A program made the position numbers and the translations under genes. DNA of 64,000 bases from Nanobdellota archaeon (GTDB lineage: Archaea; Nanobdellota; Nanobdellia; Pacearchaeales; GW2011-AR1), in contig JAEWUG010000032.1 of assembly GCA_023397215.1 (NCBI GenBank), positions 1,514-65,513 of the forward strand, written 5' to 3'. Below, in pieces: positions 12,266-53,529 of this stretch (positions within the stretch are counted from its first letter, which is position 1; every line of letters starts with the position of its first letter). The notes under the pieces are model-generated. The model made no database searches and was not told where the DNA came from. It saw only the letters and a list, made by a program, of their open reading frames with translations.

Positions 12266-12267
12266 TT

Positions 12268-31382: not shown

Positions 31383-31384
31383 AA

Positions 31385-37312: not shown

Positions 37313-37344
37313 ATTTTATTTTGAAATAAAAAGTTTATATAATT

Positions 37345-38076: not shown

Positions 38077-38115
38077 TTATATAAAGAGAATTTTAAAGTT
38101 AAAAGTATTTAGATT

Positions 38116-38907
38116 CTAAATATTATTTATAAGTTCTAATTCTTCCTTAAGCTTAATTTTTTCTTCAGGATGCATTTCTTTAGAAATATGGATATCTTCA
38201 AAATGTATGGGTTGCCATAAATAAATTTTTTTATCATTTGCTAAATGAAGTAAAGGTAAAAATAAAGATAATTTTTGATCTTTTTCATAAGCAATCTCTT
38301 GAAATTTCATTAAGTTTCTTCCAGAAATTAGAATATTCTGAGTTATAACTGAATACATTTTTTGAATCCTAATTGTTAATGGAACTTGTTTTTTAGGAAG
38401 TAAATTTGAAGTTGCTTTTTGTGTTTGAAATGTTTTAATTTGTCTTTTAATTCTTTTATTTTCAGTATTAATTGCATGATTTAAGGCTTTCATTAATTCA
38501 TCAAGAGTTACTTTTTTGTGTCTTGCTAAAGGTGTTTTTAAAACAAGAATAGGTAAACTTTCTTCGTCTATTTCTTCAAAAGAACTAAAATTCAAGATTG
38601 ACTGTATTTCTTTTTTTCCATAAAGTGAATCATTTAATTCTTGAATATAATCATCAGCTAAAATGTCAGACTTTAATCTTAAAATTAAAGCACAAGCAAG
38701 TAAAACTTTAGAAGAAATAAAAAAATTTTCTTCTTCAAGCCTCTTAATTGTTTCAATATATTTATCTGCTAAAATGGTTAAGTCAATATCCCAAGGATCT
38801 AATTGTTCTGTTTTAATTAAATCATAAATAATAGACTGCCAACTTAGTTCATTACTTGTTATTAAATCAAAAAATTGATTCTGATTAATTTTATCCTCTT
38901 TTTTCAT
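38116..38907 (-). CDS. scpA: Segregation and condensation protein A (kleisin ScpA)
   Basis: N-terminal LDPWDIDLTILADKYIETIKRLEE...SSKVLLACALILRLKSDIL matches the ScpA N-terminal domain. Confidence 0.6.
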   Translation of the reverse strand: MKKEDKINQNQFFDLITSNELSWQSIIYDLIKTEQLDPWDIDLTILADKYIETIKRLEEENFFISSKVLLACALILRLKSDILADDYIQELNDSLYGKKEIQSILNFSSFEEIDEESLPILVLKTPLARHKKVTLDELMKALNHAINTENKRIKRQIKTFQTQKATSNLLPKKQVPLTIRIQKMYSVITQNILISGRNLMKFQEIAYEKDQKLSLFLPLLHLANDKKIYLWQPIHFEDIHISKEMHPEEKIKLKEELELINNI

Positions 38908-39026
38908 AAATAAAATTATCTTAATTGTTTAATAAAGGTTAGGATAAATTTATTGTCACTAACCAATCATAACAAACCAAAAGATTTATAAACTATGTAT
39001 CTTTAATTATATTATCACCTCTTTTT

Positions 39027-39082
39027 CCCCAGGAGAGAGCGATAAGGCCACTATTTAGCTCGCTTTATCGCATCTCCCAGGG
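39027..39082. ncRNA. GC-rich imperfect hairpin (candidate structured RNA element); function and strand unknown
   Basis: CCC-a-GGAGA-ga-GCGATAAGG-[15-nt loop]-CTTTATCGC-a-TCTCC-ca-GGG, a stem of 3 + 5 + 9 bp with small internal loops. It sits as a GC island in an AT-rich 250-nt intergenic spacer between rps27ae and scpA. Confidence 0.3.
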
Positions 39083-39161
39083 TTATAATTATTTTAAAAG
39101 TACTTTATTAATTTAAAAATAATATTATTTAAAATTAAATATATTTAAGAAAAGTTAGATT

Positions 39162-39386
39162 TTATGCTAATTTTGCTTCAACTTCTTTTTTATCAAATTC
39201 AGTAAAGTGACATCTTCCACAATAAGCTCTTCCTTTTCCAAGAGATAAAAAAATACCAGGACCACATCTTGGACAAGTTCTTGCTTTAATTAATTTTTCA
39301 CCTTCAACTTTGTATTTTGTATATTTTTTAGAAGGTTTATTATTAATATGTTTTTTCTTTCCTTTAATTTTTGATTTAATTGCCAT
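39162..39386 (-). CDS. rps27ae: Ribosomal protein S27ae (eS31)
   Basis: Basic N-terminus followed by a C4 zinc ribbon CPRCGPGIFLSLGKGRAYCGRCHFTEF. Confidence 0.8.
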   Translation of the reverse strand: MAIKSKIKGKKKHINNKPSKKYTKYKVEGEKLIKARTCPRCGPGIFLSLGKGRAYCGRCHFTEFDKKEVEAKLA

Positions 39387-39750
39387 CTTTTATTTCTTCT
39401 CCTTTTTTTAATTCTAATTCCTTTTCTTTTGCTTCTTTTTCCTGTTGTTTTTTCTTTTTTAATTCAGCTTCAAGAGCTCTTTTTTCTTCTGCTAATTTTA
39501 ATCTAACTTTTTTAGGTATTATTGTATATTTTTCTTTTGATTCTTTACTTTTATAAACATAAATTTTAATGCTAAAAGAATTTTTCCCAAAATTATTATT
39601 TATTTTTTGAATAACTGTTAATTCAGGATCTTTTCCCAATTCTGCTATAATTTCTTTTTTTGTAGGTAATGTTTCATTAATTATTTCAAATAAAAATTCA
39701 TCTCTTTCTAAAAAAGGATTTTCAATTTGTTCAATTATTTTTGATTTCAT
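39376..39750 (-). CDS. rps24e: Ribosomal protein S24e (eS24)
   Basis: NPFLERDEFLFEI...TKKEIIAELGK...FGKNSFSIKIYVYKSKES aligns with eS24; conserved neighbour of S27ae. Confidence 0.8.
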   Translation of the reverse strand: MKSKIIEQIENPFLERDEFLFEIINETLPTKKEIIAELGKDPELTVIQKINNNFGKNSFSIKIYVYKSKESKEKYTIIPKKVRLKLAEEKRALEAELKKKKQQEKEAKEKELELKKGEEIKDGN

Positions 39751-39935
39751 TTTGTTTTAATAGCAAACTCTCCTTTTTTATGTATTTCTAATTTATTCGC
39801 AATTTCAGATTTTTCAGGATTAAAAACATAAACTCTTCCTTTAAATGAATCATTTGAAGGTGTTTCTCCACAAATAGGACATTTATCTCCTTGATATATT
39901 GCTTTACAATTTAAACATGCTTTTTCTTTTGCCAT
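39747..39935 (-). CDS. spt4: Transcription elongation factor Spt4 / RNAP subunit E''
   Basis: CLNCKAIYQGDKCPICG zinc ribbon followed by a PEKSEIAKKL-like segment (FNPEKSEIANKLEI); 62 aa. Confidence 0.8.
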   Translation of the reverse strand: MAKEKACLNCKAIYQGDKCPICGETPSNDSFKGRVYVFNPEKSEIANKLEIHKKGEFAIKTK

Positions 39936-39936
39936 T

Positions 39937-40518
39937 TTATTTTTTCTTTTCTAATTTTTCTTTTTTAATTGGTAATTTCTTTGCTCTTTCTTTTTCTTGA
40001 GTAACCCATTCTAATTTTCCTAATCCAGGTTGTCTCATAGTAAGACCAATTTTAGGCTGTTCTCCCCTATAAGATATTGCAACAATTCTCGCAATACAAT
40101 TATCTCCTTTTAATAAAGATCTTTTACTTTCTTTTCCTGATAAAGTACCTGTATCTGAAAATGAAACAAAGTCATCCATTGTTTGAGAAATATGAATCAT
40201 TCCTTTAATAACTCCTAAATTGATAAAAGCACCAAAATTTGTGATTTCGTCTAAGGTTCCATAAACTACTTCTTGTAACTCTGGTCTAAAAACAATTATC
40301 TTGAATGTAGATTCATAATAAGCTGCACCGTCACCTGGAATAATTACGCCTTCTTTTACATCTAATACATCTAAAACTGCAACAGTTACTCCAATATCTT
40401 TATCTTGAAAACCAATATAAGATTCTTCTAATTGTTTTTTCACAGCTTCATCAGTATCTTCCCCAAATTTTTCAGGACTTACTCTAACATAGTCTGTTAC
40501 TAATAATTCATAGAACAT
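39937..40518 (-). CDS. rpoE: DNA-directed RNA polymerase subunit E' (Rpo7)
   Basis: N-terminal Rpb7-like domain plus a C-terminal S1 domain; conserved rpoE'-spt4-rps24e-rps27ae operon order. Confidence 0.8.
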   Translation of the reverse strand: MFYELLVTDYVRVSPEKFGEDTDEAVKKQLEESYIGFQDKDIGVTVAVLDVLDVKEGVIIPGDGAAYYESTFKIIVFRPELQEVVYGTLDEITNFGAFINLGVIKGMIHISQTMDDFVSFSDTGTLSGKESKRSLLKGDNCIARIVAISYRGEQPKIGLTMRQPGLGKLEWVTQEKERAKKLPIKKEKLEKKK

Positions 40519-40773
40519 AAACTATTGAAAAAAAATTAATTTATAAATCTTGCTATTAAAAACATTAAGACAAGTTTAATTAAAATAATTAAAGGAAAAA
40601 TTTATAAATTAATTTTTTCTGTTTATTTTGTAGAAAAAGTGACTTCACAATAAGAATTCATGATTATACACTTATCACAATCATATTCAGTTTAGAGTTT
40701 AATTAGTTAGACTTAATAAGAATCTAGTGACGAATTTTTTCTACAAATATTAACTAAATTAAAGGAGAAAAAC

Positions 40774-41913
40774 ATGGCAAAAATTAGTCCGTCGTCTATA
40801 AAATATTCTATAATTGCAGACTTTGTTGCAGATGGGCCTTTTCAAAAACCTGATGTAATTGGTGCAATTTTTGGTCAAACAGAAGGGTTATTAGGCTCTG
40901 ATATGGAATTAAGAGAATTACAAAAAAATGGAAAAATAGGTAGAGTAGATGTTGATTTAATCAGTGAAAATGGAAAAACTAAGGGAGAGATAATTATTCC
41001 AACAGCACTTGATAGAACAGAAACAACAATTATTGCAGCTTCAATTGAAACAATTGATAAAATTGGCCCAACTGATGCTAAAATTACTGTAAGAGAAATA
41101 GAAGATGTTAGAGGAAGTAAAAGAGATTATATCATGGAAAGAGCAAAACAACTTTTATCCAATATTAAAAATGAAGGTATGAATTCTCGTGAAATGGAAA
41201 CAGAATTAAGAGATTCTACTAGAACATCAAAAATTGTTTCTTATGGTGATGAAGGACTTGCAGCAGGACCTGAAGTTGAAAGTTCTAATGAAATTATAGT
41301 TGTTGAAGGAAGAGCAGATGTTGTTAATTTACTAAAAGCAGGAATTAATAATGTAATAGGCATGCAAGGAACAAAACTTCCAAAAACAATTGCAATATTA
41401 GGCAATGAGAAAGAATTAACTTTATTTGTTGACGGAGATAGAGGAGGAAAATTAATCATTGAAAATGTTTGTGCTAATGCAAGAGTAGCATATATAACTA
41501 GTGCTCCTGATGGAAAGGAAGTAGAAGAATTAACTAGCAAAGAAATTCTTCAAGCTTTAAGAAAAAAAGTAACTTATGAAGAATATTTTAAAAATTCAAA
41601 GAATACTTCTTCAAGTGAAGAAAATATCCAAAAAAGAGCAATAACTAATGAAGATAAAAAGAAAATTAGAGAATTTGAATCTGAAATTAAGGGAAAGAAT
41701 GTCTTAATATTAGATGAAAATTTAAATGTAATCAAGAATATTCCTATTTCAAGATTATCTTCAACTAGAACAAAAAATGCATTTATTTTGGTAACATCTA
41801 GTGTTACAATGAGTATAATTAATTTTGCAGAAGATCTTAATGCAAAAGCAATAGCAGCTAAAACATTTGGAAGAATACCTCAAAATACAAATCTTGAATT
41901 TATCTCAATTTAA
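40774..41913 (+). CDS. dnaG: Archaeal DnaG-like primase (Toprim; exosome-associated)
   Basis: PDVIGAIFGQTEGLLGSDMELRELQKNGKIGRV is the archaeal DnaG N-terminal signature; Toprim VVEGRADVVNL...DGDRGG. Confidence 0.85.
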   Translation: MAKISPSSIKYSIIADFVADGPFQKPDVIGAIFGQTEGLLGSDMELRELQKNGKIGRVDVDLISENGKTKGEIIIPTALDRTETTIIAASIETIDKIGPTDAKITVREIEDVRGSKRDYIMERAKQLLSNIKNEGMNSREMETELRDSTRTSKIVSYGDEGLAAGPEVESSNEIIVVEGRADVVNLLKAGINNVIGMQGTKLPKTIAILGNEKELTLFVDGDRGGKLIIENVCANARVAYITSAPDGKEVEELTSKEILQALRKKVTYEEYFKNSKNTSSSEENIQKRAITNEDKKKIREFESEIKGKNVLILDENLNVIKNIPISRLSSTRTKNAFILVTSSVTMSIINFAEDLNAKAIAAKTFGRIPQNTNLEFISI

Positions 41914-41961
41914 TTTTTTAGGAAATTTATTTTTTTATTTCCCTTTTTTTATTTTTTAGAA

Positions 41962-42126
41962 TTATTTCTTTCTTACAGGTCTAAAATCTTTACTAGAACA
42001 CTTTCTACATCTAGCTTTACCACTTAAAATTTTTAAGTTGTCTAATTTCATTTTATGTTTACAAACCTTACAGACTACTGCATTCTTGAATAATCTATTC
42101 TGTGCTGCAGGAATTTTTGATGCCAT
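41962..42126 (-). CDS. rpl40e: Ribosomal protein L40e (eL40)
   Basis: Unlisted 54-aa ORF MASKIPAAQNRLFKNAVVCKVCKHKMKLDNLKILSGKARCRKCSSKDFRPVRKK, a C4 zinc ribbon typical of eL40. Confidence 0.7.
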   Translation of the reverse strand: MASKIPAAQNRLFKNAVVCKVCKHKMKLDNLKILSGKARCRKCSSKDFRPVRKK

Positions 42127-42243
42127 ATTAATCTATTCAAATTAAGGTTTTTAAGTCTTATGATTATTTAATTATTAAAAATTTTATAAATAATTAAAAA
42201 TAGCAAACTTTAAAAATTAAATAAAACTTCGTGTTATTATATT

Positions 42244-42258
42244 GCTCTCGTAGTCTAG
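42244..42258 (+). repeat. 15-nt direct duplicate of the 5' end of tRNA-Glu (GCTCTCGTAGTCTAG), 43 nt upstream of the tRNA
   Basis: Exact copy of tRNA positions 1-15; candidate att-site remnant of integrase-mediated recombination. Confidence 0.5.
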
Positions 42259-42301
42259 AGTAACATTAAAATGTTTCACAAAAGACAACGAGTGTAAGAA
42301 T

Positions 42302-42374
42302 GCTCTCGTAGTCTAGTGGCCAAGGATGCTGCCCTTTCACGGCAGTGACCCGGGTTCAAATCCCGGCGGGAGCA
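42302..42374 (+). tRNA. tRNA-Glu (anticodon UUC)
   Basis: Acceptor GCTCTCG/CGGGAGC, anticodon stem CTGCC/GGCAG with loop CTTTCAC (U33, UUC, A37), T-arm CCGGG-TTCAAAT-CCCGG, discriminator A; no CCA is encoded. Confidence 0.85.
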
Positions 42375-42589
42375 TATAGCATTCTGAGCATTTCTTGGAA
42401 CAAAAAATTTATTTTTATCGACGCTGAACATAAAAATATATCAAAAAGACACTACGATAAAATAACATAGAAAATGTTGTACAAAATTAGACAACTTTTG
42501 ATTTTTGATTATATTTATAATCGGATTATTTGTGTCACAAGTAGGTGGTCGACAAGATATATATATGTCCATCCAGCACACAACACACG

Positions 42590-43765
42590 ATGGCGAAACT
42601 AGATCCATATAATACAAAAGAATCATTTATGAAATGGAAAAATAAAGTTCATGAATTAGGGAAAATTCCGGACTTATCTCAAGAAAATTCTGAGCTTGTT
42701 TTAAGGTATTTAAGTGATATGGAATTAGGGATAAATACCTCATTAAATAGTAAAAAGGGTTCTAGAAGTTACATTAGACTAAATGCTGTTAGAATTAGAT
42801 TGATATTTTTATTAAAGAAATTTCAAGGATATTACAATTTAGATAATATAATTACTATCACAGAAACTCAATTATGTTCATTCTTTGTAGATATGCGTAA
42901 CGGCGTAATAAGACGACTTGACGGGCGTGAATATCGGGCAATAAGGGACTTTGTTAAAATATTTAAGGCATTCTGGCACTGGTGGATGCTTGTATCAAGA
43001 AAGGTAGGAAAAGATGTTCCAGATATAACTCTTTATATAGATTCTTCAGGAGAGAAACCAAGATGGGTTTACTTAAATGAGGAACAAATCAAAAAATTAT
43101 GTGATAATCTTACATTCAAATATAGAGTTCTTGCAATGTTTTTATTTGATACTGGAATTAGAGCTCCAACTGAATTAATGAATATAAAAAAATCGGATTT
43201 TTCGCAAGATTATAAAGAATTAAACATAAGGGATGAAATAAGCAAAACTTTTGGTAGAAGAATAAAATTAATGCTATCTTCAGATTTAATTAAGCGGTAT
43301 ATTGAAGATTTTCAAATAAAGGATGACGATTATTTATTTACGACTTTGCCTTGTAATGTAAATCGTTACTTGAAGAATAATGCTAGAAAAATATTAGGAG
43401 AAGGATTGAGTCTAGCTGGTCAAAGATATTCCGAGCTTACAATGTATGATTTTAGGCATTGTTCATGTTGTTATTGGTTACCTAGATATAAATCTGAGTC
43501 TGCATTAAAGTATAGATTTGGCTGGAAGAAATCTGACAAGATACACTATTACTCTGAATTATTAGGAATGAGAGATACAATAAGTGAAGATGATTTACTT
43601 ACTCCAGATGTAAAAACAGAAGTAGAAAAAGAACTTGTTGAAACAAAAAATGAAAATTCATTACTAAAAGAAGAATTAATAGCATTACAAGAACAAATGA
43701 AAGAGATATTTAGTCAAGTAACTAAATTATCAAATAATTCTTCAATATCCTTAATGTCTAAATAA
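42590..43765 (+). CDS. int: Tyrosine recombinase/integrase (intact; element integrated next to tRNA-Glu)
   Basis: LFDTGIRAPTELMNIKKSDF (box I Arg), YDFRHCSCCYWL (H-x-x-R) and GW...IHYYSEL (catalytic Tyr). Start moved to the internal Met (MAKLDPYN...) because a TATA-like ATATATATA sits 25-30 nt upstream at 42557-42566. The gene is noticeably GC-richer than its surroundings. Confidence 0.7.
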   Translation: MAKLDPYNTKESFMKWKNKVHELGKIPDLSQENSELVLRYLSDMELGINTSLNSKKGSRSYIRLNAVRIRLIFLLKKFQGYYNLDNIITITETQLCSFFVDMRNGVIRRLDGREYRAIRDFVKIFKAFWHWWMLVSRKVGKDVPDITLYIDSSGEKPRWVYLNEEQIKKLCDNLTFKYRVLAMFLFDTGIRAPTELMNIKKSDFSQDYKELNIRDEISKTFGRRIKLMLSSDLIKRYIEDFQIKDDDYLFTTLPCNVNRYLKNNARKILGEGLSLAGQRYSELTMYDFRHCSCCYWLPRYKSESALKYRFGWKKSDKIHYYSELLGMRDTISEDDLLTPDVKTEVEKELVETKNENSLLKEELIALQEQMKEIFSQVTKLSNNSSISLMSK

Positions 43766-45126
43766 ATTGCTTTCATTTCCTGCATTCTTTTAATAGCTTT
43801 TTCTGTAAATCCACTTTTTGATACAAAAATAAAATTATAACTTCCAGGATGATTAATATATTTCAATTTTTTTTCTAATTCTTCAATAACATCAATATTT
43901 AACGGTTTATTAGTCCATTTAACTTCTCCTACCAAAAAATTCTTTTCTTTTAAATTATATGCAAGAATATCTATTTCATTAGCTCTTCTGTCCCACCATG
44001 AGCCAATATTTTCGAAGTTTAATTTTAAACCTCTTAGCTCTTTTGTATTATAAAGAATAAGTAATTCTTTTACTATATTTTCAAAAATTCTCCCAACATA
44101 TCCATTCAAATCTTGTTTTATATATTCAGAAACTAGCTTAGTATTCCCTAAACTTAAGGCTGTTTGATTTGGAAGAATAAATTTGTACCAAAATTTAAAA
44201 AAATTATCTTTTATTTGATACCTCCCAAGTCTTTCTTTCCCTAATATTGGATCATTCCTTCCAACTAAATCAAGAAGGCTATCCAATTTGTTAAGATAGG
44301 CTGGCATCACTTGTGAATTTATATTTGTAATATCTTCTATCTCTTTCATTGTCTCTTTTCCAGAGGAAATAGCTCCTAAAATGGCATTATATTTTGCATG
44401 AACTCTAACATTCTCATATTCTAGTAAATTCTTAGGCTCTTCAAATAGTATAGCTCCTTTTTTTAATATTAAATCGAAGATTCTCTCATAAATATCTCCG
44501 TTACTTTTTTGAAATTTGTCTAAATAATCTGGAGTTCCACCAAAGACAGAATAAATAAGTATTTTTTCTTCTTCAGACATATTTTTAAACATTAATCTAA
44601 AATCTGAATATCTAAATGGGGAAATTTTTATTTTTTGTGCTCTTCCATAAAGAGCCCCATTCCTACTATCCAATATTTTTTGAATCATACCAATAGAAGA
44701 CCCCAAAAGAATAATCATAATTTTTTTATTCTTTAGTTTTGAATCCCATGCATTTTGTAGACTACTAATATATTCTGGAGCGATATTCGAGAATCTTTGA
44801 AATTCATCAATTGCTAAGACAAATTTTTCTTTATTTGCTTTTTCTCCAATATAGTCAAGAAATTCATAAAAGTCTTTAAAAATTATTTTATCTCCCAATT
44901 GCTCTTCAACCGCTTTAGATAAATAATTTAATATATCACTTTTTTGAGTAACTTCTACATAAAAATAAAATTGATTCTTTATTCCACTCAAAAATTGTTT
45001 AACTAACTCAGTTTTTCCAACTCTTCTTCTTCCATATAAGACTAACATATTAGAGGAGGATTCTGCATACTTTTCTCGTAAAAACTTCAATTCATTCTTT
45101 CTATCAAAAAATTCTTTTTCTGCCAT
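43714..45126 (-). CDS. Archaeal-type AAA ATPase (Arch_ATPase, PF01637-like) with C-terminal DUF234 (restriction-endonuclease-like) domain
   Basis: FFDRKNELKFL...LVLYGRRRVGKTELVKQFL Walker A region, Walker B LAIDEFQ, and a C-terminal ...EIDILAY...VGEVKW segment resembling PD-(D/E)xK. Its 3' end overlaps the integrase 3' end (convergent). Confidence 0.6.
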   Translation of the reverse strand: MAEKEFFDRKNELKFLREKYAESSSNMLVLYGRRRVGKTELVKQFLSGIKNQFYFYVEVTQKSDILNYLSKAVEEQLGDKIIFKDFYEFLDYIGEKANKEKFVLAIDEFQRFSNIAPEYISSLQNAWDSKLKNKKIMIILLGSSIGMIQKILDSRNGALYGRAQKIKISPFRYSDFRLMFKNMSEEEKILIYSVFGGTPDYLDKFQKSNGDIYERIFDLILKKGAILFEEPKNLLEYENVRVHAKYNAILGAISSGKETMKEIEDITNINSQVMPAYLNKLDSLLDLVGRNDPILGKERLGRYQIKDNFFKFWYKFILPNQTALSLGNTKLVSEYIKQDLNGYVGRIFENIVKELLILYNTKELRGLKLNFENIGSWWDRRANEIDILAYNLKEKNFLVGEVKWTNKPLNIDVIEELEKKLKYINHPGSYNFIFVSKSGFTEKAIKRMQEMKAIYLDIKDIEELFDNLVT

Positions 45127-45130
45127 TTAG

Positions 45131-45250
45131 TATTATCACAATAATGTTATAACATTATTATGATAATGTTACTATATAAATGTTTCTTTTTATTATTAAT
45201 GTAATGATTTATATTATTCCTTTACCTCAAATTACTAGTAATTTGAGATA
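45131..45250. promoter_or_regulatory. Two palindromic operator-like sites upstream of the Arch_ATPase gene
   Basis: A near-perfect 19-bp-arm inverted repeat, TATTATCACAATAATGTTAT/ATAACATTATTATGATAAT, lies between a TATA-like box and the start codon. A second perfect 11-bp-arm palindrome is CTCAAATTACT|AGTAATTTGAG at 45226-45247. Confidence 0.45.
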
Positions 45251-45531
45251 GTAGAAAAATTATTTTCTCAACATATCGATTCAATCTCGACAAAATTTAT
45301 AAAGTTTGGAAACAACATTCTTTTAGTTTATTTTATATTCGCTGTCTAATCGAAAGAAAAAATATTTTTGTCTTATGAGAAGACACATCAACGACCGATC
45401 CGGACGGAGCATGAGACCTTTTTGACATATCTTGGGGACAAACTTTAATTAAAAAATTAACTGAAAAAGAGTAGAAAATTTTTCAATCATTAACTTATAG
45501 CAAATATTCAGAACAAGAAATTTATTCTTTT

Positions 45532-46839
45532 TTAACAATGTTTATTCCTTGTTACAATTTTATTAAATAAACTATTCTTTGCATTTGTTTGAGAAGTTTT
45601 TGCATTTTTTGAATATAATAAAGCATATCCTTTATTTTTAGAATTATATAGAGAATGTTGATTATTTATTGAATTATTAACTGCATATTTATTATTTTTT
45701 GAGAAGAATAATGAATATTCACTATTTGTTGAATAACATAAAGAATAATCAGTATTTTGCGAAAAATCTAAAGAACATCCACTATTCTTAGAACGCATTA
45801 AAGATTTTCTATTATTTTTTGAACGAAATAATGTATGTTCTTTATTTTTTGAATCTTCTAATGAACGATCTGTATTCCTTGAATTAGATAAGGATTCTCC
45901 TGAATTATCTGAGTATTTCAATGATTTGCCTGAATTTAAAGAAGAACACAATGACTTGCCTGAATTCATTGAACCATATAAAGAATAATCAGTATTTATG
46001 GAATTAAATAATGATTCTTCTGAATTATTTGATTCTTCTAATGAATAATTAGAATTTATAGAATCACATAATGATTTTCCAGTATTTATTGATTTTTTTA
46101 GAGTAAAATTTCTATTTTCTGATGAAAGTAAAGAATCTTCTGTATTTACTGAATCCTCTAATGAATTTTCTGAATTATTTGAGTTATATAAAGAGTGTCC
46201 ACTATTATTAGATCTACAAAGAGAACAAGATGAATTATTAGAAGATAAAAATGATTTATCAGTATTTATGGAATTGTATAAAGAATATCCCCTATTTTTA
46301 GAACTACGAAAAGTAAAATTGCTATTTCTTGATTCTTCTAATGAATTTTCTACATTTGTTGAATTACTAAATGAATTTCCTTTATTATATGCTCTTTTAA
46401 ATGAATGTCCTTTATTTCGTGAACCAAAGAAAGAATTATCTGAATTTTGTGAACCAAAAAAAGAATTATCGTTATTCTCTGAAAATTTAAAAGATTCATC
46501 ATTATTCTCTGAAAATCTAAAAGAATTTCCATTATTCTTTGAAAACCACAATTGTCTTTGACTAAAAATTAATCCTTCTGTTGTACTATCAATTATAGCT
46601 CCAAGTCCTCCATATTTTAAACAATGAATATGAGAAATATCTTTTGTTATTAAAGCATAGGCAGATGCAGCTATACCTGAAAGATATTGATTTTCATGTA
46701 TAAAGAACCCACATAAATCTTTTGGTTTATCCTTATATGAATTTGCAATTATTCTTGTTAAATGTCTAACTCTATTTCCATTTTCATCTTGAACTGCTTG
46801 GTTTAGTAATTTTATTAATCGTTGAGTTTTTTCTTTCAT
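45532..46839 (-). CDS. Decapeptide tandem-repeat protein: about 110-aa N-terminal domain plus about 32 repeats of x-S-x-N-[ST]-x-x-S-[LF]-x
   Basis: Protein reads ...FSKNNGNSFR FSENNDESFK ... NSINTDYSLY GSMNSGKSLC SSLNSGKSLK ... with strict 10-residue periodicity. The DNA shows the matching 30-bp tandem periodicity across 45.6-46.55 kb. Confidence 0.55.
   Translation of the reverse strand: MKEKTQRLIKLLNQAVQDENGNRVRHLTRIIANSYKDKPKDLCGFFIHENQYLSGIAASAYALITKDISHIHCLKYGGLGAIIDSTTEGLIFSQRQLWFSKNNGNSFRFSENNDESFKFSENNDNSFFGSQNSDNSFFGSRNKGHSFKRAYNKGNSFSNSTNVENSLEESRNSNFTFRSSKNRGYSLYNSINTDKSFLSSNNSSCSLCRSNNSGHSLYNSNNSENSLEDSVNTEDSLLSSENRNFTLKKSINTGKSLCDSINSNYSLEESNNSEESLFNSINTDYSLYGSMNSGKSLCSSLNSGKSLKYSDNSGESLSNSRNTDRSLEDSKNKEHTLFRSKNNRKSLMRSKNSGCSLDFSQNTDYSLCYSTNSEYSLFFSKNNKYAVNNSINNQHSLYNSKNKGYALLYSKNAKTSQTNAKNSLFNKIVTRNKHC
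45640..46560. repeat. Approximately 30-bp imperfect tandem DNA repeat (coding; underlies the decapeptide-repeat protein)
   Basis: Units such as attattctctgaaaatttaaaagattcatc and attattctctgaaaatctaaaagaatttcc recur about 30 times; no unique spacers. Confidence 0.7.
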
Positions 46840-46946
46840 AAAGACATTTTAATTTAGACCTTTATAAATCTTAGTTATAGTCATTTAATAGTAATTAATT
46901 GGATTGTTTATTTAAAAATAAAAGAAGATTTATAAATTGAAATTAA

Positions 46947-47231
46947 ATGAATTTTATTGGTAAATACAATATGAACGAAAAATATAATGTAGAAATAATT
47001 TATTCAAAAGAAAGTCAATCAAATTTAGAAAAAACTATTTCTGAATTAAAATTTATCTCAGGAATACAACCTGAAATTAAAATAATATTAGATGAAAATT
47101 TAGAAAAATATAGTCTTATGTACAATAGCTTAGCTTATTATAAAGCATATGACATTTTTAATTATATTATGAGAGATGTTTTAACAAAAAAGAATGAAGT
47201 TCATTTTTTTATTAATCCATCAAAAGAATAA
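46947..47231 (+). CDS. Hypothetical protein
   Basis: 94-aa ORF with no motif; inside the putative island. Confidence 0.3.
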   Translation: MNFIGKYNMNEKYNVEIIYSKESQSNLEKTISELKFISGIQPEIKIILDENLEKYSLMYNSLAYYKAYDIFNYIMRDVLTKKNEVHFFINPSKE

Positions 47232-47507
47232 ATATTCTTTTTTAGGGATTTAGATTGAATAAATAATAAAGTAAAAAATAAATTATACAAATATTAATAA
47301 AGAAGTTGTACTTTTCTTTTTAATGTCACAGAGATATACTATAAGAAATAGACAATATAATTTGAAGAATCAGTCTATTAGACCTTCTTTAAAACAAGGA
47401 AACTTAGAAACAGGCTTAAGTTTAGGACAGGTTATTGAAGAATCCCCAATAACTTCATTTCAAGATGTATTGAGATGTCAATATTTTATTTATTCTAATA
47501 AAAATAA

Positions 47508-48140
47508 TTAACATAATCCTCTTTGGGATTGTTCTTTGAATATATCAAAAAAGAATAATTTTATCCAACCTAAAGAAGGAACTCTAAATATTGCTTTTCC
47601 TATTATTTGATTTTCATATATTTTTTTCTCATTTTCTAATTGATGATAATTTGTTATTGGGTTATCACCTTTTGTAGCATAAGGTTCTATATCATCTATA
47701 AGCCTATGAATAATCGGATGATTTGCTCCTCCTTCAAAAATAATAACATCACCTTTTTCTAAATTTTTTGGATTAATTGCTATAATAATATCTCCTTTAT
47801 TTAATCCATTCTTAAAGGGCCAATTTTTAGTATCTTCTAATGAAATATCTTCTTCAAAATAAATATTATTCAATATATTTTCAAAACCTTTATTCGGGTG
47901 ATACATAGAACAAGATTCTACAATTACTAGAGGTAATGAAGTTCCAGTAATAAAAGATAAAATAGGAAAAAGAATCAATTTAATAAAAATTGCAGCTAAT
48001 ATTAAAAATGCAATTGTTGACGGCCAAGAATCTTCTTTTAAAAAAGTAATTATTTTCTTTAAAATAATTTTTATATCCTCTTTTTTCATAAAATCAAGTA
48101 AAATAAATATCTTTATATAACTTATGTAAATTAAAACCAT
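47508..48140 (-). CDS. Signal peptidase I, archaeal/ER (Sec11) type
   Basis: N-terminal TM helix, then VIVESCSMYHP (Ser box), GDVIIFEGGANHPIIHRLID (His box) and TKGDNP (Asp box). The true start is probably the internal MKKEDIKII. Confidence 0.6.
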   Translation of the reverse strand: MVLIYISYIKIFILLDFMKKEDIKIILKKIITFLKEDSWPSTIAFLILAAIFIKLILFPILSFITGTSLPLVIVESCSMYHPNKGFENILNNIYFEEDISLEDTKNWPFKNGLNKGDIIIAINPKNLEKGDVIIFEGGANHPIIHRLIDDIEPYATKGDNPITNYHQLENEKKIYENQIIGKAIFRVPSLGWIKLFFFDIFKEQSQRGLC

Positions 48141-48176
48141 AAAAAAGTATATAAACTTGTTTTTTCTTTTTTAGTT

Positions 48177-48392
48177 ATGATGGATTTAATTTCTAATAGT
48201 CTTTTCTTAACATTAATTATAATTCTTTCTATTTGGGAAAGTGTTTGGAAAGGAATTGCATTATGGAAAACAGGTAGGAATAATCAATTAACTTGGTTTG
48301 TTTGTATTTTAATATTTAATACAATAGGTATTTTGCCAATATTATATTTATTGTTTTTTCAAAAGAAAATTATTGTTAAAAAGAAAAAATAA
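48177..48392 (+). CDS. Small two-TM membrane protein
   Basis: 71 aa with two hydrophobic helices and a KKKK tail; no family recognised. Confidence 0.3.
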   Translation: MMDLISNSLFLTLIIILSIWESVWKGIALWKTGRNNQLTWFVCILIFNTIGILPILYLLFFQKKIIVKKKK

Positions 48393-48394
48393 AT

Positions 48395-49381
48395 TTATTT
48401 CCAAGTTACATTAACTTGATCTGTTCTTTGTTTTGGATTAATATCTATTTTATTTAAATCTTGAATAGAGTAATAAATCTTTTTCTTAAACATTTTCCAA
48501 CCTAAGTAAGCAATCATTCCAGCATTATCAACTAATAAACTATTATCTGGACAGAAAAATTTCACATTTCTTTTATCACACATTTCTTTACACATTTGTT
48601 TTAATCTTGTATTACAAGCAACACCTCCACCTAACAACAATTCTTTTTTACCTGTGTGGGCTAAAGCTCTTTCTGAAGCTTCAACTAACATTGCAAAAAC
48701 TGTTTCTTGCAAACTAAAACTAATATCTTCTAAAGGATATTTTTTATCTAACAATTCTTTTATTTTTGTTTGAAGTCCACTAAAACTAATATCCATACCT
48801 TTAATTGTATAAGGAAGTTCAATTAAATTATTACTTTTATTTGCTAATTCTTGAATTTTAGGTCCACCTGGAAAACCTAAATTTGCATATCTTGCTATTG
48901 TATCTATAAAGTTTCCAACACCTAAATCAAGAGTTTCTCCAAAAACTCTATATTTATTAGATTCATATGCAATTATTTGGGTATTAGCACCACTAGCATA
49001 AAGCATAACAGGATCTTTTGCTCCAACAGTTTCTCCTATTTCTAAATGAGCAATACAATGATTTACAGGAATTATTGAGACCTTTAATTCTTTAACTTTT
49101 TCTTTAACAAAGTTCATTCCTGCAATTAAACACGGAGCAAGTCCTGGTGCATTTGAAAAACTAATTGCATTAATTTCTTTATCAAGAATATTTGCTTTAT
49201 TTAATGCTTCTTCATAAATTTTATTTGCAATATTTTCATGATGTTTTTTTACTTCTAAAGGGATTAAACCACCTGATTTAGTAGTATAAGAATCTTTAAC
49301 ATTACTTAATATTTTTCCGTCTTTTACAACACTTACACCAAATGTATGTGCTGTAGACTCAACACCTAAGATGATTACCAT
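48395..49381 (-). CDS. kae1: tRNA N6-adenosine threonylcarbamoyltransferase Kae1/TsaD
   Basis: MVIILGVESTAHTFGVSVV N-terminus, HCIAHLEIG metal-binding His pair, an ASGANT-like motif, GGVACN; ASKHA fold. Confidence 0.85.
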   Translation of the reverse strand: MVIILGVESTAHTFGVSVVKDGKILSNVKDSYTTKSGGLIPLEVKKHHENIANKIYEEALNKANILDKEINAISFSNAPGLAPCLIAGMNFVKEKVKELKVSIIPVNHCIAHLEIGETVGAKDPVMLYASGANTQIIAYESNKYRVFGETLDLGVGNFIDTIARYANLGFPGGPKIQELANKSNNLIELPYTIKGMDISFSGLQTKIKELLDKKYPLEDISFSLQETVFAMLVEASERALAHTGKKELLLGGGVACNTRLKQMCKEMCDKRNVKFFCPDNSLLVDNAGMIAYLGWKMFKKKIYYSIQDLNKIDINPKQRTDQVNVTWK

Positions 49382-49484
49382 AATTAAATAATTAAATAAG
49401 ATTATAAAAATATAAGGGTATTATCACTTCTAATGGCTTTGTAGTCAAAAAAGCATTTATATATTATATTTATGTTAAAATAAC

Positions 49485-50096
49485 ATGGTAGAAAATACAG
49501 ATATTTCAGTATCAATTGATGACAATCGAATTAAAGATATTGCAGAGGCTATTACAAATAAAACTTGTAAAAGAATATTAAACTATTTAACTGAAAATGA
49601 AAAAACAATTAGTGAAATCTCTATTGAATTGGATATTCCAATTAATACTGTTGAATATAATATTAAAAAATTATTGAACACTGGTTTAATTGAAAAAAAA
49701 TCTTTTTGGTGGAGTATAAAAGGGAAAAAAATGCCAACTTATACTGTTTCAAATAAAAGAATAATTATTTCTCCAAAAAAAGAAATTAATAATTTAAAGT
49801 ATTTAATAGCTTTAGGAGTAACAGGTATTATCTCATTAATTATTAAAAATATAACTCAACCTGCGAAAATAGTTTATGAAAAGACTATTCCTTTATTAAA
49901 TGATTTTTCAAATGAATTGATTAAAAGTACAGCAGACTCTTTTTTAGAAAATGCTCCCCAACAAACAAGTCAAATTATTAATACAGTTACTTATTTCCCA
50001 AAAATTGGTTTTGGAGAATGGTTTTTATTTGGAGCGTGGTTTGTGATTCTACTTTTTTTTATATTTAGTATAGTAAGTGAAAGGAGGTCTAAATAA
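49485..50096 (+). CDS. ArsR-like wHTH regulator fused to C-terminal TM segments
   Basis: TISEISIELDIPINTVEYNIKKLLNTGLI helix-turn-helix, followed by two hydrophobic helices. Confidence 0.5.
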   Translation: MVENTDISVSIDDNRIKDIAEAITNKTCKRILNYLTENEKTISEISIELDIPINTVEYNIKKLLNTGLIEKKSFWWSIKGKKMPTYTVSNKRIIISPKKEINNLKYLIALGVTGIISLIIKNITQPAKIVYEKTIPLLNDFSNELIKSTADSFLENAPQQTSQIINTVTYFPKIGFGEWFLFGAWFVILLFFIFSIVSERRSK

Positions 50097-50844
50097 AATG
50101 AAAGAAAATGACAAATTAAAAATGACTGGATTAATTATTATAGGGGTTATCTTATTAACATTAATAATAATTTATTCAGTGTATAGTTTTCAACCAAGAA
50201 GTACAATTAATGTTGAAGGTTTAGGAGAAATTAAAGTTACTCCAAATGAAATTAATTTAAATTTTAATATTGAAAAAAATGCAAGTACATCAAAAGAAGC
50301 TACTAACTTAAACTTTGAAACAACAGAAAAAGTTAAAGAAGCTTTAATTGCTATTGGTATTGCAGAAGAAGATATTAAAACAACAAACTTTAATGTATAT
50401 GAAGAATTTGATTGGTCTAAAGATGAAAGAAAATCTCTAGGTTATAAGGCTAGTCAAGTTTTAACATTAAAATTGTCTATTGATGAAAAAGAAAAAATTA
50501 GTCAATCCATTAATGCAGCAATAGAAAATGATGCAACAATTAGTTATATTTATTATTCATTAAGCGAAGATCTTGAAAAAGAAACTAAGGCTTTAGCAAT
50601 AAATAAAGCTACAGAAGATGCAAAAGAAAAAGCTACAGAAATGACTAAAACACTTTCTGCAAAACTTGGTAGAATTATACAAATAAGTGATTCATATAAC
50701 ACACCTTCTTACTATTATGGAACATATGCTAAAGATGCTGTATTAACAGAATCTATTAGTGCTAGAGGTTTAAGTGAAGTTTCATTTAATCCAGATGAAC
50801 AAACAGTAAGTGCAAGTGTTTCAATATTATATGAAATCAAATAA
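50077..50844 (+). CDS. SIMPL/DUF541-domain secreted protein
   Basis: N-terminal TM/signal anchor followed by ...INVEGLGEIKVTPNEINLNFNIE... and the overall pattern of SIMPL (26-kDa periplasmic immunogenic protein) family. Confidence 0.5.
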   Translation: MKGGLNKMKENDKLKMTGLIIIGVILLTLIIIYSVYSFQPRSTINVEGLGEIKVTPNEINLNFNIEKNASTSKEATNLNFETTEKVKEALIAIGIAEEDIKTTNFNVYEEFDWSKDERKSLGYKASQVLTLKLSIDEKEKISQSINAAIENDATISYIYYSLSEDLEKETKALAINKATEDAKEKATEMTKTLSAKLGRIIQISDSYNTPSYYYGTYAKDAVLTESISARGLSEVSFNPDEQTVSASVSILYEIK

Positions 50845-50861
50845 ATAAATTTTTTATTTTT

Positions 50862-52253
50862 TTATTCTTTTTTTAATATTTTTTCTAATTCTTCTTTAGC
50901 TAATTTAAAATCAGCTCTTCTTTGACTTTGTTTCATTACTTGACCAATTAAAAAGTTTAAAGAATTTTCTTGACCTTCTTTGTAATCTTGAACTGCTTTT
51001 GGATTTTGTTCTATTACTTTTTGACAAATATTTTGAACAGCATCTTCTGCAATTTTAAATATATCTTTTTTTTCTTTAATAGAAAAACTTTTAGGAATAA
51101 AATCATTCATTATTTGTTTTGCTTTTAATGTTGTTAACTCTTTTTTCTCTACTAAATTAATTAACTCAGCTAAATGATTTGGTTTTATATCTATATCTGA
51201 GTCATCTAATGTTTTTTTATTATAATTTAAAATTCTTAATAATTCTATTGTAATCCAACTTAAATTCTTTTTAACATCTATTCCTTCTTTAGCCAACTCT
51301 TCAAAAAATTCAACTAATTCTAAATTTTTCATAATTATTTGTGCATCACTTTTTTCAACTTCATAAATCAAAAGAAGTTTCTTTAATTTTTCATCAGGAG
51401 TTTCAGGTAATGCTTTTTTTATTTCTTGAACAAAATCAGAGTTTAATTTCATAATTGGTAAATCTGGATCAGGAATAAATCTATAATCTTGAGCATTTTC
51501 TTTTGTTCTCATTCTAATTGTCTTCCCTTTTGATTCATCATATCTACGAGTTTCTTGTATTATTTTTTCATTATTTTTATTTGCATCTAATTGACGAGAA
51601 ATTTCATAGTTAATTGCTTTTTGTATCTTATCTAAAGAATTTAAATTTTTTATTTCAACTCTTTCTCCATATGTTGAAATATTTACATCAACTTTGATTC
51701 CGGCATTTTTCTTTATTGCTTTAATATAACTTAAACTTAAAATGAAACTTTTTAACCAAGAAATAACTTCATCAACTTTTTTAAAATCTGGAGCTGTGAC
51801 TACTTCTACTAAAGGTAAACCACTTCTATTATAATTAATATGACCATTTTCAGGATTCCATTGTGCAGGATCTTCTTCTAAATGACATTCCCAAATATTT
51901 ATACCTTTAAAATTACCTTTATATGCTGGAAAAGAACAATGTGCTCCAGAAATAGTATTTTGAAATCCTTTAGGTAAATCAGGCCAATTATAATGTTTTC
52001 TTTGAAAAATTAAATCTTTTTCTTCTTCAATTTTACAATTTAATATCAAACTAACTTGAATTAATTTTTTTATTGCTTCCTTATTCACTAACATTGGTTT
52101 ACTTCCCGGTGTTCCTGTACAAATGGGGCAAATATTTGAATTAGGTTCATCAAATTCAAAAGTAGAACATTTACAAAATAATTTTTCTTGAGTATTTAAG
52201 TAACAATGAATTTCTAAACCAATTTTTAAAGGATGTTGTGTTATTAATTCCAT
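50862..52253 (-). CDS. gatB: Asp/Glu-tRNA amidotransferase subunit B (GatB)
   Basis: GLEIHCYLNTQEKLFCKC N-terminal signature, 463 aa, and a C-terminal GatB/YqeY domain. Confidence 0.8.
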   Translation of the reverse strand: MELITQHPLKIGLEIHCYLNTQEKLFCKCSTFEFDEPNSNICPICTGTPGSKPMLVNKEAIKKLIQVSLILNCKIEEEKDLIFQRKHYNWPDLPKGFQNTISGAHCSFPAYKGNFKGINIWECHLEEDPAQWNPENGHINYNRSGLPLVEVVTAPDFKKVDEVISWLKSFILSLSYIKAIKKNAGIKVDVNISTYGERVEIKNLNSLDKIQKAINYEISRQLDANKNNEKIIQETRRYDESKGKTIRMRTKENAQDYRFIPDPDLPIMKLNSDFVQEIKKALPETPDEKLKKLLLIYEVEKSDAQIIMKNLELVEFFEELAKEGIDVKKNLSWITIELLRILNYNKKTLDDSDIDIKPNHLAELINLVEKKELTTLKAKQIMNDFIPKSFSIKEKKDIFKIAEDAVQNICQKVIEQNPKAVQDYKEGQENSLNFLIGQVMKQSQRRADFKLAKEELEKILKKE

Positions 52254-52424
52254 TATAAAAAAAGTAAATAAGAGTTTTTAAGATTTGTTAAACTATTTTT
52301 GGCTTCATTAAAAAATAAATGCCAAACTAATATTGGCGTCATTTTTTATTTAAATAAAGAAAAGCAAAGTACAAGCTAAGTCGGCTTCACTTTCTTAAAA
52401 TAAGATTAGTAATTTAAACTAATT

Positions 52425-52712: not shown

Positions 52713-52727
52713 TTTTTTTATTTTTAT

Positions 52728-53528: not shown

Positions 53529-53529
53529 T

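Follow-up and report, generated by a model that had tools for sequence, protein, structure and literature searches.

The window, by which we mean the whole 64,000-nt stretch of DNA analysed here, carries an intact tRNA-Glu(UUC) gene that is followed on the same strand by a gene for a tyrosine integrase and on the opposite strand by one for an ATPase_2/DUF234 protein (Table 1). Further downstream lie genes for a decapeptide-repeat protein (30-nt period), ORFs of 94 and 62 aa, a signal-peptidase-like protein (weak archaeal signal-peptidase match), a DUF5652 protein and Kae1, and an orphan copy of tRNA-Glu nucleotides 1-15 precedes the tRNA gene. A preliminary description, made by eye, had placed the tRNA and the intact integrase correctly and had proposed an integrated mobile element spanning 42244-48392. 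Comparison with related genomes confirms that an element is inserted here, but at 42376-45412.

Table 1. Features at the tRNA-Glu locus (window coordinates).
Feature	Position	Strand	Basis
Host BRE/TATA-like box AAACTTTAAAAAT	42205..42217	+	read from sequence
Orphan copy of tRNA-Glu nucleotides 1-15	42244..42258	+	exact repeat
Spacer, 43 nt, 5' fragment to tRNA	42259..42301	+	folds, alignment
tRNA-Glu(UUC), intact, integration target (attB/attL)	42301/2-42374/5	+	ARAGORN
attL core GGAGCAT	42369..42375	+	three-way alignment of attB (L083), attL, attR
Insertion, 3,037 bp	42376-45412	.	comparison with empty-site strains
Integrase-proximal arm (P')	42376..42589	+	alignments
Tyrosine integrase, 391 aa	42590..43765	+	ORF, motifs, profile match, fold
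ATPase_2 + DUF234 protein, 470 aa, sole cargo gene	43714..45126	-	Pfam, PADLOC
Perfect 20-bp palindrome AATAATGTTATAACATTATT	45140..45159	.	read from sequence
attR, imperfect element-borne copy of tRNA-Glu 3' end, ATCCGGACGGAGCAT	45398..45412	+	sequence match
Host-side flank (B'), P'-arm-like	45413..45480	+	alignment with P' arms of L002, L004, L006
Flanking genes outside the polymorphic element	45532..48392	.	kept in empty-site strains

The integrase ORF is intact and starts 215 nt past the tRNA. The TATA-like box suggested for this gene is present as a ATATATATAT run at 42557-42566, which places it 24-33 nt upstream of the ATG; it forms the end of a 40-nt block of the P' arm (42527-42566), which the related species L081 shares without a difference. 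Profile searches matched the PHROG 1 integrase (5.6e-18) and, weakly, NCBIfam XerA (7e-9). Pfam PF00589 gave no match in the window integrase at E<=0.01, and many homologues carry a precomputed PF00589 match. An alignment of 25 homologues shows no variation at R191, K219/K226, Y286-D-F-R289-H290, W312 and Y320/Y321, the first His of the HxxR motif being replaced by Tyr (YxxR). An AlphaFold model (pLDDT 76) has a core-binding and a catalytic domain and a long C-terminal helix, and almost all of the best 50 of 62 Foldseek PDB matches (E<=1e-3) are tyrosine recombinases, led by XerA and followed by Cre, Tn1549 Int, XerH, lambda Int and IntI. Both the catalytic residues and the two-domain fold place the protein in the tyrosine recombinase superfamily, and the model resembles Xer/Cre in its two-domain layout.

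The second gene matches PF01637 (9e-30), PF03008 (7e-24) and, over residues 1-421, the PADLOC model PDC-S27 (1e-39). The full-length model match, together with the ATPase_2 and DUF234 architecture, makes it a PDC-S27 member. This system, an unvalidated defence candidate (validation is pending for most PDC systems), is reported to be especially abundant in Archaea, and DPANN archaea are reported to be enriched in compact single-gene systems (PMC12988326). The protein would probably act as a single-gene anti-virus system. The palindrome AATAATGTTATAACATTATT lies 14 nt upstream of the ATPase start codon and is possibly an operator or promoter element.

The limits of the element were obtained from conspecific strains that lack it. 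Contig L083 is 99.6-99.7% identical to the window on both flanks and misses only 42376-45412, its positions 1-11632 aligning to window 30774-42404 and 11590-21137 to window 45400-54939. Alignment of L171 gave the same limits (99.5-99.8% flank identity for the two strains), and the empty allele is found in at least four contigs besides L083 (L171, L172, L174 and L177). The filled allele was found again in independent samples (L163-L165 and L167). All genes at 45532-48392 follow tRNA-Glu directly in L083, with 98-100% protein identity, and are likewise present in L171, L172, L174 and L177, while the ATPase_2/DUF234 gene is missing from the empty-site strains. The downstream genes are as listed in the preliminary description, but only the ATPase_2/DUF234 gene is cargo, and the insertion therefore measures 3.04 kb instead of 6.1 kb. 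With its two genes, and with PHROGs matches to an integrase and a weak ATPase only, the element does not qualify as a provirus; no relatives were found in IMG/VR or INPHARED.

Both ends of the insertion correspond to the same sequence, the left being the 3' terminus of tRNA-Glu(UUC) and the right an imperfect copy of that terminus. The empty junction in L083 reads GGGAGCAT joined to GAGACC, and GGAGCAT is common to attL, attR and attB; on this alignment, the crossover must lie within GGAGCAT, at the extreme 3' end of the tRNA-Glu gene. The two att sites share 7 identical nt, or 15 nt with 3 differences, and attR is the sole match with up to 3 errors to the 16-nt tRNA 3' end on either strand of the 64 kb. 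Inspection by eye had found no second copy of the tRNA 3' end because this copy is imperfect. Twelve nucleotides of attR, CGGACGGAGCAT, differ from the host tRNA and equal the tRNA-Glu 3' end of L081, so that attR arrived with the element; apart from the chimeric L082 allele and the copies in the window's own species, the closest integrase (85% identity) is that of L081. The predicted attP is CGGACGGAGCAT followed by ATAGCATTCTGAGC, and the predicted attB is GGGAGCAT followed by GAGACCTTTTTG. Thus, the locus has an empty site in a close relative whose junction equals attB, and a direct (imperfect) target repeat at both ends, as expected of an element that has integrated site-specifically at a tRNA.

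The tRNA-Glu site is a population hotspot in the window's species, in which we found empty, filled, chimeric, tandem and integrase-deleted alleles. L082, L166 with L175, and L173 are identical to the window up to exactly 42375, where they part from it with three different sequences. L173 has two integrases in tandem, and the L166-type allele occurs in at least two independent assemblies (L175, and L166 with L176, which are the same scaffold).

Directly to the right of the element, the B' flank carries ACCTTTTTGACAT...GGGGAC. The P' arms of other family members have CCTTYTTGGCA and GGGGAC motifs in common, which are missing at integrase-less tRNAs. By eye, ACCTTTTTGACAT...GGGGAC was not seen 3' of tRNAs unconnected to family integrases, the apparent exceptions (L008, L013 and L023) having an integrase gene a few kb away. 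The B' flank is probably a relic of an earlier element. It is possible, although we hold it only tentatively, that the entire stretch from tRNA-Glu to kae1 consists of stacked insertions, of which the 3-kb element is the newest and 45413-48392 is an older one that lost its integrase and became fixed; this would be compatible with the insertion described above. Such accretion is favoured by the resemblance of 45413-45480 to integrase-proximal arms in the family and by the tandem stacks and integrase-deleted derivatives at the same site (L173 and L166), and the genes at 45.5-48.4 kb have no homologues beside dnaG in about 80 related genomes. However, gene order around dnaG is unconserved in relatives anyway, so that absence elsewhere says little, and every conspecific contig seen has the genes, which are thus fixed among them. 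Moreover, no second tRNA 3' fragment or integrase remnant was found in 45413-56000, and the tetranucleotide distance of 45.4-48.4 kb is unremarkable (11th percentile).

On the other side of the tRNA, an exact repeat, GCTCTCGTAGTCTAG, has its two copies at 42244-42258 and 42302-42316 (16 nt including the preceding T). No further copies at up to 2 mismatches exist in the window, and none occurred in 100 shuffles. The repeat had been taken for an att core; it is real and non-random, but L083 and L171, in which the site is empty, carry it unchanged, and we reject it as an att site of the present element. The orphan copy is kept in L082 as well and absent from L081. Nor can the two 15-mers flank the integrase, as they are 43 nt apart and both to its left. 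A single island of approximately 6.1 kb (42244-48392), with the 5' 15-mer as its left end and cargo running from the ATPase gene to the DUF5652 gene up to kae1, would accommodate the non-random repeat, the slightly low GC content of 45.4-48.4 kb (22.5%) and the observation that the genes at 43.7-48.4 kb recur in no other fetched loci except those of the window's own species. We nevertheless reject it in this form, given that strains with 99.5-99.8% identity retain the 15-mer, spacer, tRNA and 45532-48392 genes and that the true right repeat is at 45398-45412.

The orphan copy has the look of an older scar. Most likely it is the stump that an earlier insertion left 5' of the gene, a separate and older event. 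The box AAACTTTAAAAAT is approximately 27 nt upstream of the 5' fragment and not of the intact tRNA. The same box is present approximately 24 nt upstream of the tRNA-Glu start in L081, where there is no duplication, and 5' of the 5' fragments in L004 and L027. Within the spacer, AACAT-N4-ATGTT can form a small hairpin, and AGACAACGAGTGT repeats the fragment imperfectly in inverted orientation. The spacer has a homologue at the corresponding position of tRNA-Gly in L004 (score of 22 in local alignment, versus 12.8 +/- 2.3 for shuffles) and is no tandem copy of the promoter region. As a separate observation, orphan copies of tRNA nucleotides 1 to 13-15 are recurrent, always ending at the start of the D-loop and continuing into a homologous spacer of approximately 43 nt.

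Composition is not a strong argument for or against the element. The GC shift reported for the integrase gene exists (28.7% for the gene and 27.5% for the element, against 25.2% for the window) but is small, and an equal or higher GC content occurs in 8% of 1.2-kb and 13% of 3-kb windows. The tetranucleotide distance of the element falls in the top 5% of windows; overall, the compositional signal is weak.

The integrase has 2,342 homologues (56-85% identity), forming about 185 clusters at 50% identity and all from DPANN or unclassified archaeal metagenome assemblies. As far as these sequences go, the family is confined to DPANN archaea (Pacearchaeota/Woesearchaeota), and a literature search found no published description of it. 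Up to four copies occur per genome (four in JAHJSH01, three in CAZETU01). At least 44 of 80 loci (31 via ARAGORN plus 13 intron-containing ones via BLAST) have a same-strand tRNA ending approximately 80-350 nt upstream of the integrase, the tRNAs being Asp, Gly, Glu, Gln, Tyr, Cys, Ser, Leu and Met. About a third of the 80 loci have no adjacent tRNA, some of them having too little upstream sequence and others (L008, L013, L023 and L173) a distal, inverted integrase. Repeats of the tRNA 3' end are present 3.4-11 kb downstream in L004, L027, L055 and L028. Restriction-modification and reverse-transcriptase genes are frequent neighbours: among the ORFs within 4.5 kb 3' of the integrase genes, 13 of 150 encode DNA methylases, and others encode restriction enzymes, SWI2/SNF2 proteins and five reverse transcriptases; an RT-16 RNA is also present at the L004 locus.

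Could the recombinase instead be a domesticated housekeeping enzyme, i.e., a XerA-like dimer resolvase or a regulator of the tRNA locus, with the 3-kb difference being an ordinary deletion? Archaeal XerA (Thermoplasma 5HXY, Pyrococcus 4A8E) provides both the best structure match and the best NCBIfam profile match, and like XerA the integrase has two domains and lacks an N-terminal arm-binding domain. Searches of IMG/VR, plasmids and phages yielded no homologue, and the family is strongly conserved (about 60% identity among the homologues listed, with a uniform length near 390 aa). Such conservation is atypical for the integrases of selfish elements. However, the XerA score of 35.6 bits is far below the NCBIfam equivalog cut-off of 220, and the window protein is about 100 residues longer than XerA, with a C-terminal coiled helix and YxxR for HxxR. 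Unlike XerA, the family is multi-copy, linked to many different tRNAs and variably present: the genes neighbouring the window copy recur beside none of 80 other family copies, the integrase gene is missing in conspecific strains, and the segment that differs between strains ends precisely at a tRNA 3'-end repeat, the right copy of which is not that of the host tRNA. A housekeeping role is hence highly unlikely.

Equally slim are the chances that the presence/absence and mosaic alleles are metagenome mis-joins through the conserved tRNA and integrase core. The L168-L170 contigs stop inside the integrase gene, and L082 is a contig that Logan assembled from a public run, which means that its mosaic, with breakpoints at the end of the tRNA and in the best-conserved region of the integrase, could be chimeric. 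However, the empty allele occurs in independent JGI, ENA and Logan assemblies with equal junctions in the two that were aligned (L083 and L171), the filled allele is on contigs of 108-163 kb, the 7-nt core at the empty junction is too short for a de Bruijn mis-join, and the L166-type allele recurs.

We therefore put a probability of about 85% on 42376-45412 being a minimal two-gene integrative element with defence-type cargo, inserted at the 3' end of tRNA-Glu by its own integrase. In the proposed mechanism, the integrase would recombine the attP of the element, a tRNA-Glu-like 3' segment ending in CGGACGGAGCAT, with the chromosomal tRNA-Glu(UUC) 3' end, the strand exchange falling inside the common core. 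This would leave the tRNA gene intact at attL with the integrase gene, whole and not split, 215 nt downstream, and would move the tRNA-like segment of the element to attR. The family as a whole is directed at the 3' ends of many different tRNAs, usually with defence-type genes downstream. Elements at tRNA-Glu come and go, stack in tandem and are trimmed by homologous and microhomology-mediated deletions, which can strand cargo without an integrase.

The insertion mechanism is of the classical kind. SSV-type (type I) elements carry attP within the integrase gene, and their integration splits that gene in two. The window element resembles these in having a tyrosine recombinase that targets archaeal tRNA genes, but its ORF is intact and both att sites are outside it, the nearer one 215 nt upstream. 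This makes its behaviour pNOB8-like rather than SSV-like, as anticipated from the sequence. pNOB8-type (type II) elements, in the scheme of She and colleagues, are archaeal integrative elements with an intact, non-partitioned integrase; the assignment is by the behavioural criterion of an intact gene after integration only. Other shared traits are the att site outside the integrase gene, the direct repeat of the tRNA 3' end and a whole integrase that could excise the element. In contrast to pNOB8-type elements, the window element is only 3 kb, has no replication, conjugation or virion genes, and has a very short core (7 nt identical) at the extreme tRNA 3' end. Its integrase has no detectable similarity to plasmid or phage records (tblastn, E<=1e-3), including 72,556 plasmid records, a collection that may or may not include pNOB8. 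Bacterial P4-type tRNA islets and defence hotspots have the same order of tRNA, integrase, cargo and 3' fragment, and share the defence-dominated cargo, presence/absence polymorphism and tandem stacking at one tRNA. The differences are the DPANN host with its reduced genome, an integrase family that has no sequence relationship to theirs, and the extremely small size of the elements, with one cargo gene in the window element.

A broader, rather doubtful generalisation is that tRNA genes of Pacearchaeota/Woesearchaeota are cassette exchange platforms at which a DPANN-specific, unusually conserved recombinase family installs, stacks and overwrites single-gene defence cassettes at tRNA 3' ends and, separately, that orphan tRNA 5' copies mark a second, undescribed insertion mode on the 5' side. 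Candidates for the latter may be a recombinase with a 5' core or staggered-cut, casposase-like integration with a 13-16 bp target duplication. The genomes of DPANN archaea are tiny and contain few CRISPR systems, and, to our knowledge, almost no mobile elements have been described from them. The present locus shows that very small, integrase-driven elements at tRNA genes allow these archaea to acquire single defence-type genes and to lose them again, and the allele series within one species shows how cargo can become an "orphan" chromosomal gene. The integrase family could serve as a marker for variable defence loci in DPANN metagenome assemblies.

Scanning metagenomes with the DnaG of the window, we recovered a conspecific contig, L083 (DnaG identity 100%), which lacks both the integrase and the ATPase. 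Its positions 1-11632 correspond to window 30774-42404 at 99.6% and its positions 11590-21137 to window 45400-54939 at 99.7%, and immediately after tRNA-Glu come the repeat protein, two small ORFs and the signal-peptidase-like gene, then DUF5652 and kae1. Comparison of the three junctions (see table; attB, empty site; attL and attR, element ends) therefore places the insertion at 42376-45412 (3,037 bp), with GGAGCAT as the common sequence. The feature in the window is a genuine integrated element, with boundaries and an att site other than those first proposed. The preliminary description had drawn a larger island, 42244-48392, and had counted the repeat protein, the small ORFs and the signal-peptidase-like gene as cargo beyond the ATPase; all of these except the ATPase are present in L083, which lacks only the 3.04-kb, two-gene element.

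Coordinates and junctions of the tRNA-Glu locus and its alleles
Feature	Position	Strand	Description
tRNA-Glu(UUC)	42301-42375	+	ARAGORN; acceptor stem pairs as 42302-42374, discriminator A
ATATATATAT run	42557-42566		upstream of integrase ATG
Integrase ORF	ATG at 42590	+	391 aa
ATPase_2 + DUF234 gene	43714-45126	-	
Degenerate decapeptide-repeat protein	45532-46839	-	435 aa, 30-nt period
Beyond repeat protein			two small ORFs, weak archaeal signal-peptidase I match, DUF5652, Kae1
attB			...AATCCCGGCGGGAGCAT joined to GAGACCTTTTTGAC; junction comparison
attL			...AATCCCGGCGGGAGCAT joined to ATAGCATTCTGAGC; junction comparison
attR			...ACGACCGATCCGGACGGAGCAT joined to GAGACCTTTTTGAC; junction comparison
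L082 allele			identity to window through 42375, resuming at about 43258; 55-75% identity between
L173 allele (ENA ERZ3460576 NODE_2943)			tRNA, HNH gene, 319-aa protein, inverted integrase, second integrase region
L166, L175, L176 alleles			identity to window through 42375, resuming at 43609; HNH segment between

A second copy of the tRNA 3' end, which had earlier escaped notice, was identified at attR by empty-site comparison and fuzzy search. It is imperfect, and it is the sole match in the window to the tRNA 3' 16-mer at at most 3 errors; an exact-match repeat search (11-mers or longer, tRNA region against window) found only the 5' duplication. The attR sequence CGGACGGAGCAT differs from the host tRNA (CGGCGGGAGCAT) but is the very sequence that ends tRNA-Glu in L081, a related species in which an 85%-identical integrase follows that tRNA, so that the right-hand copy came in with the element. 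Such an element-borne copy is what attP x attB recombination would leave, and the circular attP junction is predicted as …ACGACCGATCCGGACGGAGCAT joined to ATAGCATTCTGAGCATTTC…. Within the element arm at 42376-42395, the final 6 nt of the tRNA region recur (GAGCAT ATAGCATTCT GAGCAT TTCT), unlike L082, where TTCT follows GAGCAT directly; a micro-duplication where crossover took place may account for this.

Across about 80 related metagenome contigs, gene order around dnaG is not kept beyond the species, so only conspecific contigs are informative, and the synteny check near dnaG reveals the insertion within the species. The empty allele is common (L171, with its junction confirmed by alignment, plus ten similar places; L172, L174 and L177), and the filled allele occurs in other samples on contigs of up to 163 kb. 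Divergence from the window in L082, L173 and L166/L175/L176 sets in exactly at 42375. In L082, the integrase-proximal arm and the N-terminal two-thirds of the integrase derive from another element. L173 is a tandem array, in which the inverted integrase is 56% identical to that of the window and the second integrase region is 83% identical (DNA) to window 42483-43509; its 319-aa protein has, by eye, a PD-(D/E)xK-like C-terminus. L166, L175 and L176 represent a deletion derivative that keeps the ATPase and has no functional integrase; a common 'VKTE' joins the start of the 319-aa gene, in frame, to the C-terminal tail of the integrase. Within one species, GGGAGCAT is followed by four different sequences, and the recombination point is therefore the tRNA 3' terminus. 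It follows from the allelic series that elements were stacked and then trimmed by homologous or microhomology-mediated events, and the tRNA-Glu site is a population-level hotspot. On the host side, window 45413-45480 aligns with the integrase-proximal arms of the integrase loci L002, L004 and L006 (ACCTTTTTGACAT...GGGGAC) and is also the post-tRNA sequence in the empty allele; its sequence suggests a relic of an earlier element, and searches of the window gave no further tRNA fragment or integrase remnant marking the end of such a relic. The stretch 45.5-48.4 kb may be ancient cargo.

Both tRNA-Glu and an intact tyrosine integrase ORF 3' of it were located as described before (ARAGORN, ORF reading). 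In GC content the integrase gene reaches 28.7% against 25.2% for the window, but the compositional argument is weak, because 8% of equal-size windows reach the same value. A sigma-70 promoter/terminator scan was set aside as not applicable to an archaeon. When run against profile collections, the integrase has no Pfam match at E<=0.01, matches PHROG 1 'integrase' at 5.6e-18 and scores 35.6 bits with the archaeal XerA model, far under the cut-off of 220. A profile of 25 homologues has XerA (5HXY, E=2e-4) as its sole match among solved structures, and R191, K219/K226, Y286-x-x-R289-H290, W312 and Y320/Y321 are invariant across the aligned family. The AlphaFold model (pLDDT 76) resembles XerA, Cre, Tn1549 Int, XerH, lambda Int and IntI, and adds a long C-terminal helix (residues 339-390). 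The protein is a real though divergent tyrosine recombinase. Elsewhere in the window, a 173-aa ORF (18933-19454) resembles tRNA-splicing endonuclease; it accounts for a weak tblastn match (19005-19163) considered as an integrase pseudogene near tRNA-Gln, and its matches to the integrase C-terminus (E about 0.2-0.9) are spurious.

A large protein collection holds 2,342 homologues at E<=1e-3, the best 120 of which are 58-85% identical, with one at 100% from the window's own genome; they measure about 390 aa, and their sources are DPANN or unclassified archaeal assemblies. An exhaustive profile search of 50%-identity representatives returned only 953 at E<=1e-3 (185 at E<=1e-30), and the family is thus discrete. 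No relatives were found in IMG/VR viral contigs, PLSDB plasmids or INPHARED phages.

The integrase family is tRNA-linked, multi-copy and mobile. Several genomes among the 80 loci carry two to four copies (JAHJSH01 four, CAZETU01 three), and in 31/80 loci ARAGORN detects a tRNA on the integrase strand that precedes the integrase start by about 80-350 nt. BLAST against the collected tRNAs added 13 loci where ARAGORN had missed tRNAs with long introns at position 37/38, and three with merely a tRNA 3' fragment; the targets comprise Asp, Gly, Glu, Gln, Tyr, Cys, Ser, Leu and Met. Introns of this kind (about 60-110 nt) are common in the clade, and since ARAGORN misses these tRNAs, tRNA counts of these genomes are underestimated. 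Eleven loci (L002, L006, L018, L032, L036, L048, L051, L060, L072, L075 and L080) have intron tRNAs that precede the integrase start by about 100-330 nt. Motifs of the CCTTYTTGGCA and GGGGAC-like kind are common to the first about 40 nt that follow integrase-linked tRNAs, and by eye are not seen after tRNAs without a nearby integrase. Separately, a sequence like GTGATTT(GAACAA), similar to part of a T-arm or to a 3' fragment, lies just 3' of tRNA-Met(CAT) in several species (L110, L116, L125, L129 and L133, with the GAACAA part kept in L110, L125 and L133), often preceding tRNA-Leu(TAA).

In L004, L027, L055 and L028, 12-14 nt of the tRNA 3' end recur exactly at a distance of 3.4-11 kb downstream. 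A family-wide attR search (16-nt tRNA ends, at most 2 errors) gave a match in only 3/45 loci, and att cores are too short for delimiting most family elements. Neighbouring and cargo genes of the window had no match beside the other integrases in the 80 loci, so no element backbone is conserved beyond the integrase.

The 15-nt copy of the tRNA 5' end, GCTCTCGTAGTCTAG, had been read as the att core. It is exact and non-random, occurring exactly twice in the window (42244 and 42302; 16 nt with the preceding T), with no third copy even when 2 mismatches are allowed and none in shuffles, but it is not the core, since every conspecific contig carries the duplication, empty-site ones included. L081 does not have the duplication, nor apparently does L088, where the interval between tRNA and L40e is about 89 nt shorter. 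A AAACTTTAAAAA box precedes the tRNA by about 24 nt in L081 and the orphan fragment by about 27 nt in the window, a spacing that identifies the fragment as the ancestral tRNA start, with 58 nt inserted.

A like layout is seen at tRNA-Gly (L004), tRNA-Asp (L027) and tRNA-Glu (L052), all beside family integrases, where fragments run from tRNA nucleotide 1 to 13-15 (D-loop start) and are followed by a 42-53-nt spacer; the spacers of the window and L004 are homologous. There are longer versions as well. L019 has a 29-nt fragment at -140, and in its spacer a decayed T-arm can be made out by eye, together with an arm-like motif and another TATA-like box; L046 has two fragment pieces. In L076 (14780-16620, minus-strand reading), a 42-nt copy of the tRNA-Gly(GCC) 5' end lies 1.6 kb upstream of the intact gene, with a 385-aa Fic-motif (HPFSDGNSR) gene and no integrase between them; this looks like a 5'-side insertion whose gene is of toxin or defence type. 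The clade also frequently has short 3' fragments at 10-90 nt beyond its tRNAs. We give roughly even odds to the 5' fragments being stumps of earlier 5'-side insertions, since almost wholly deleted. Tandem duplication of promoter and tRNA start was rejected as the origin of the 5' copy, as the spacers of the window, L004 and L027 resemble their upstream sequence no more than shuffles do. A lox/dif-like palindrome at the tRNA 5' boundary is clear in the window only (10/13 positions) and not general. A hairpin motif (GTAACAT..ATGTTTCA) was rejected as a widespread mobile mini-element: it has just one extra exact match, in L115 upstream of rps12, fuzzy searches being uninformative in AT-rich DNA.

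With regard to cargo, the ATPase matches PADLOC PDC-S27 over its full length (1e-39). PDC-S27 is described as a candidate that still awaits validation and is particularly abundant among Archaea, and DPANN are described as enriched in compact single-gene systems (PMC12988326). We infer a defence role for the ATPase. A perfect 20-bp palindrome, AATAATGTTATAACATTATT, lies at 45140-45159, 14 nt upstream of the ATPase start codon and followed by a partial third repeat, and may be an operator. The 435-aa repeat protein, for which Pfam, NCBIfam, PADLOC and PHROGs gave no family, is also carried by empty-site strains. Among 150 ORFs scanned within 4.5 kb downstream of family integrases, 13 encode N6/N4 DNA methylases and five reverse transcriptases, others being Eco57I-type, type I R subunits, MvaI/BcnI nucleases and SWI2/SNF2 proteins; the L004 element contains, 3' of its integrase, an Rfam RT-16 RNA (12817-12950, 82.8 bits).

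The integration mechanism is classical and already known; the integrase family appears to be undescribed in the literature searched.
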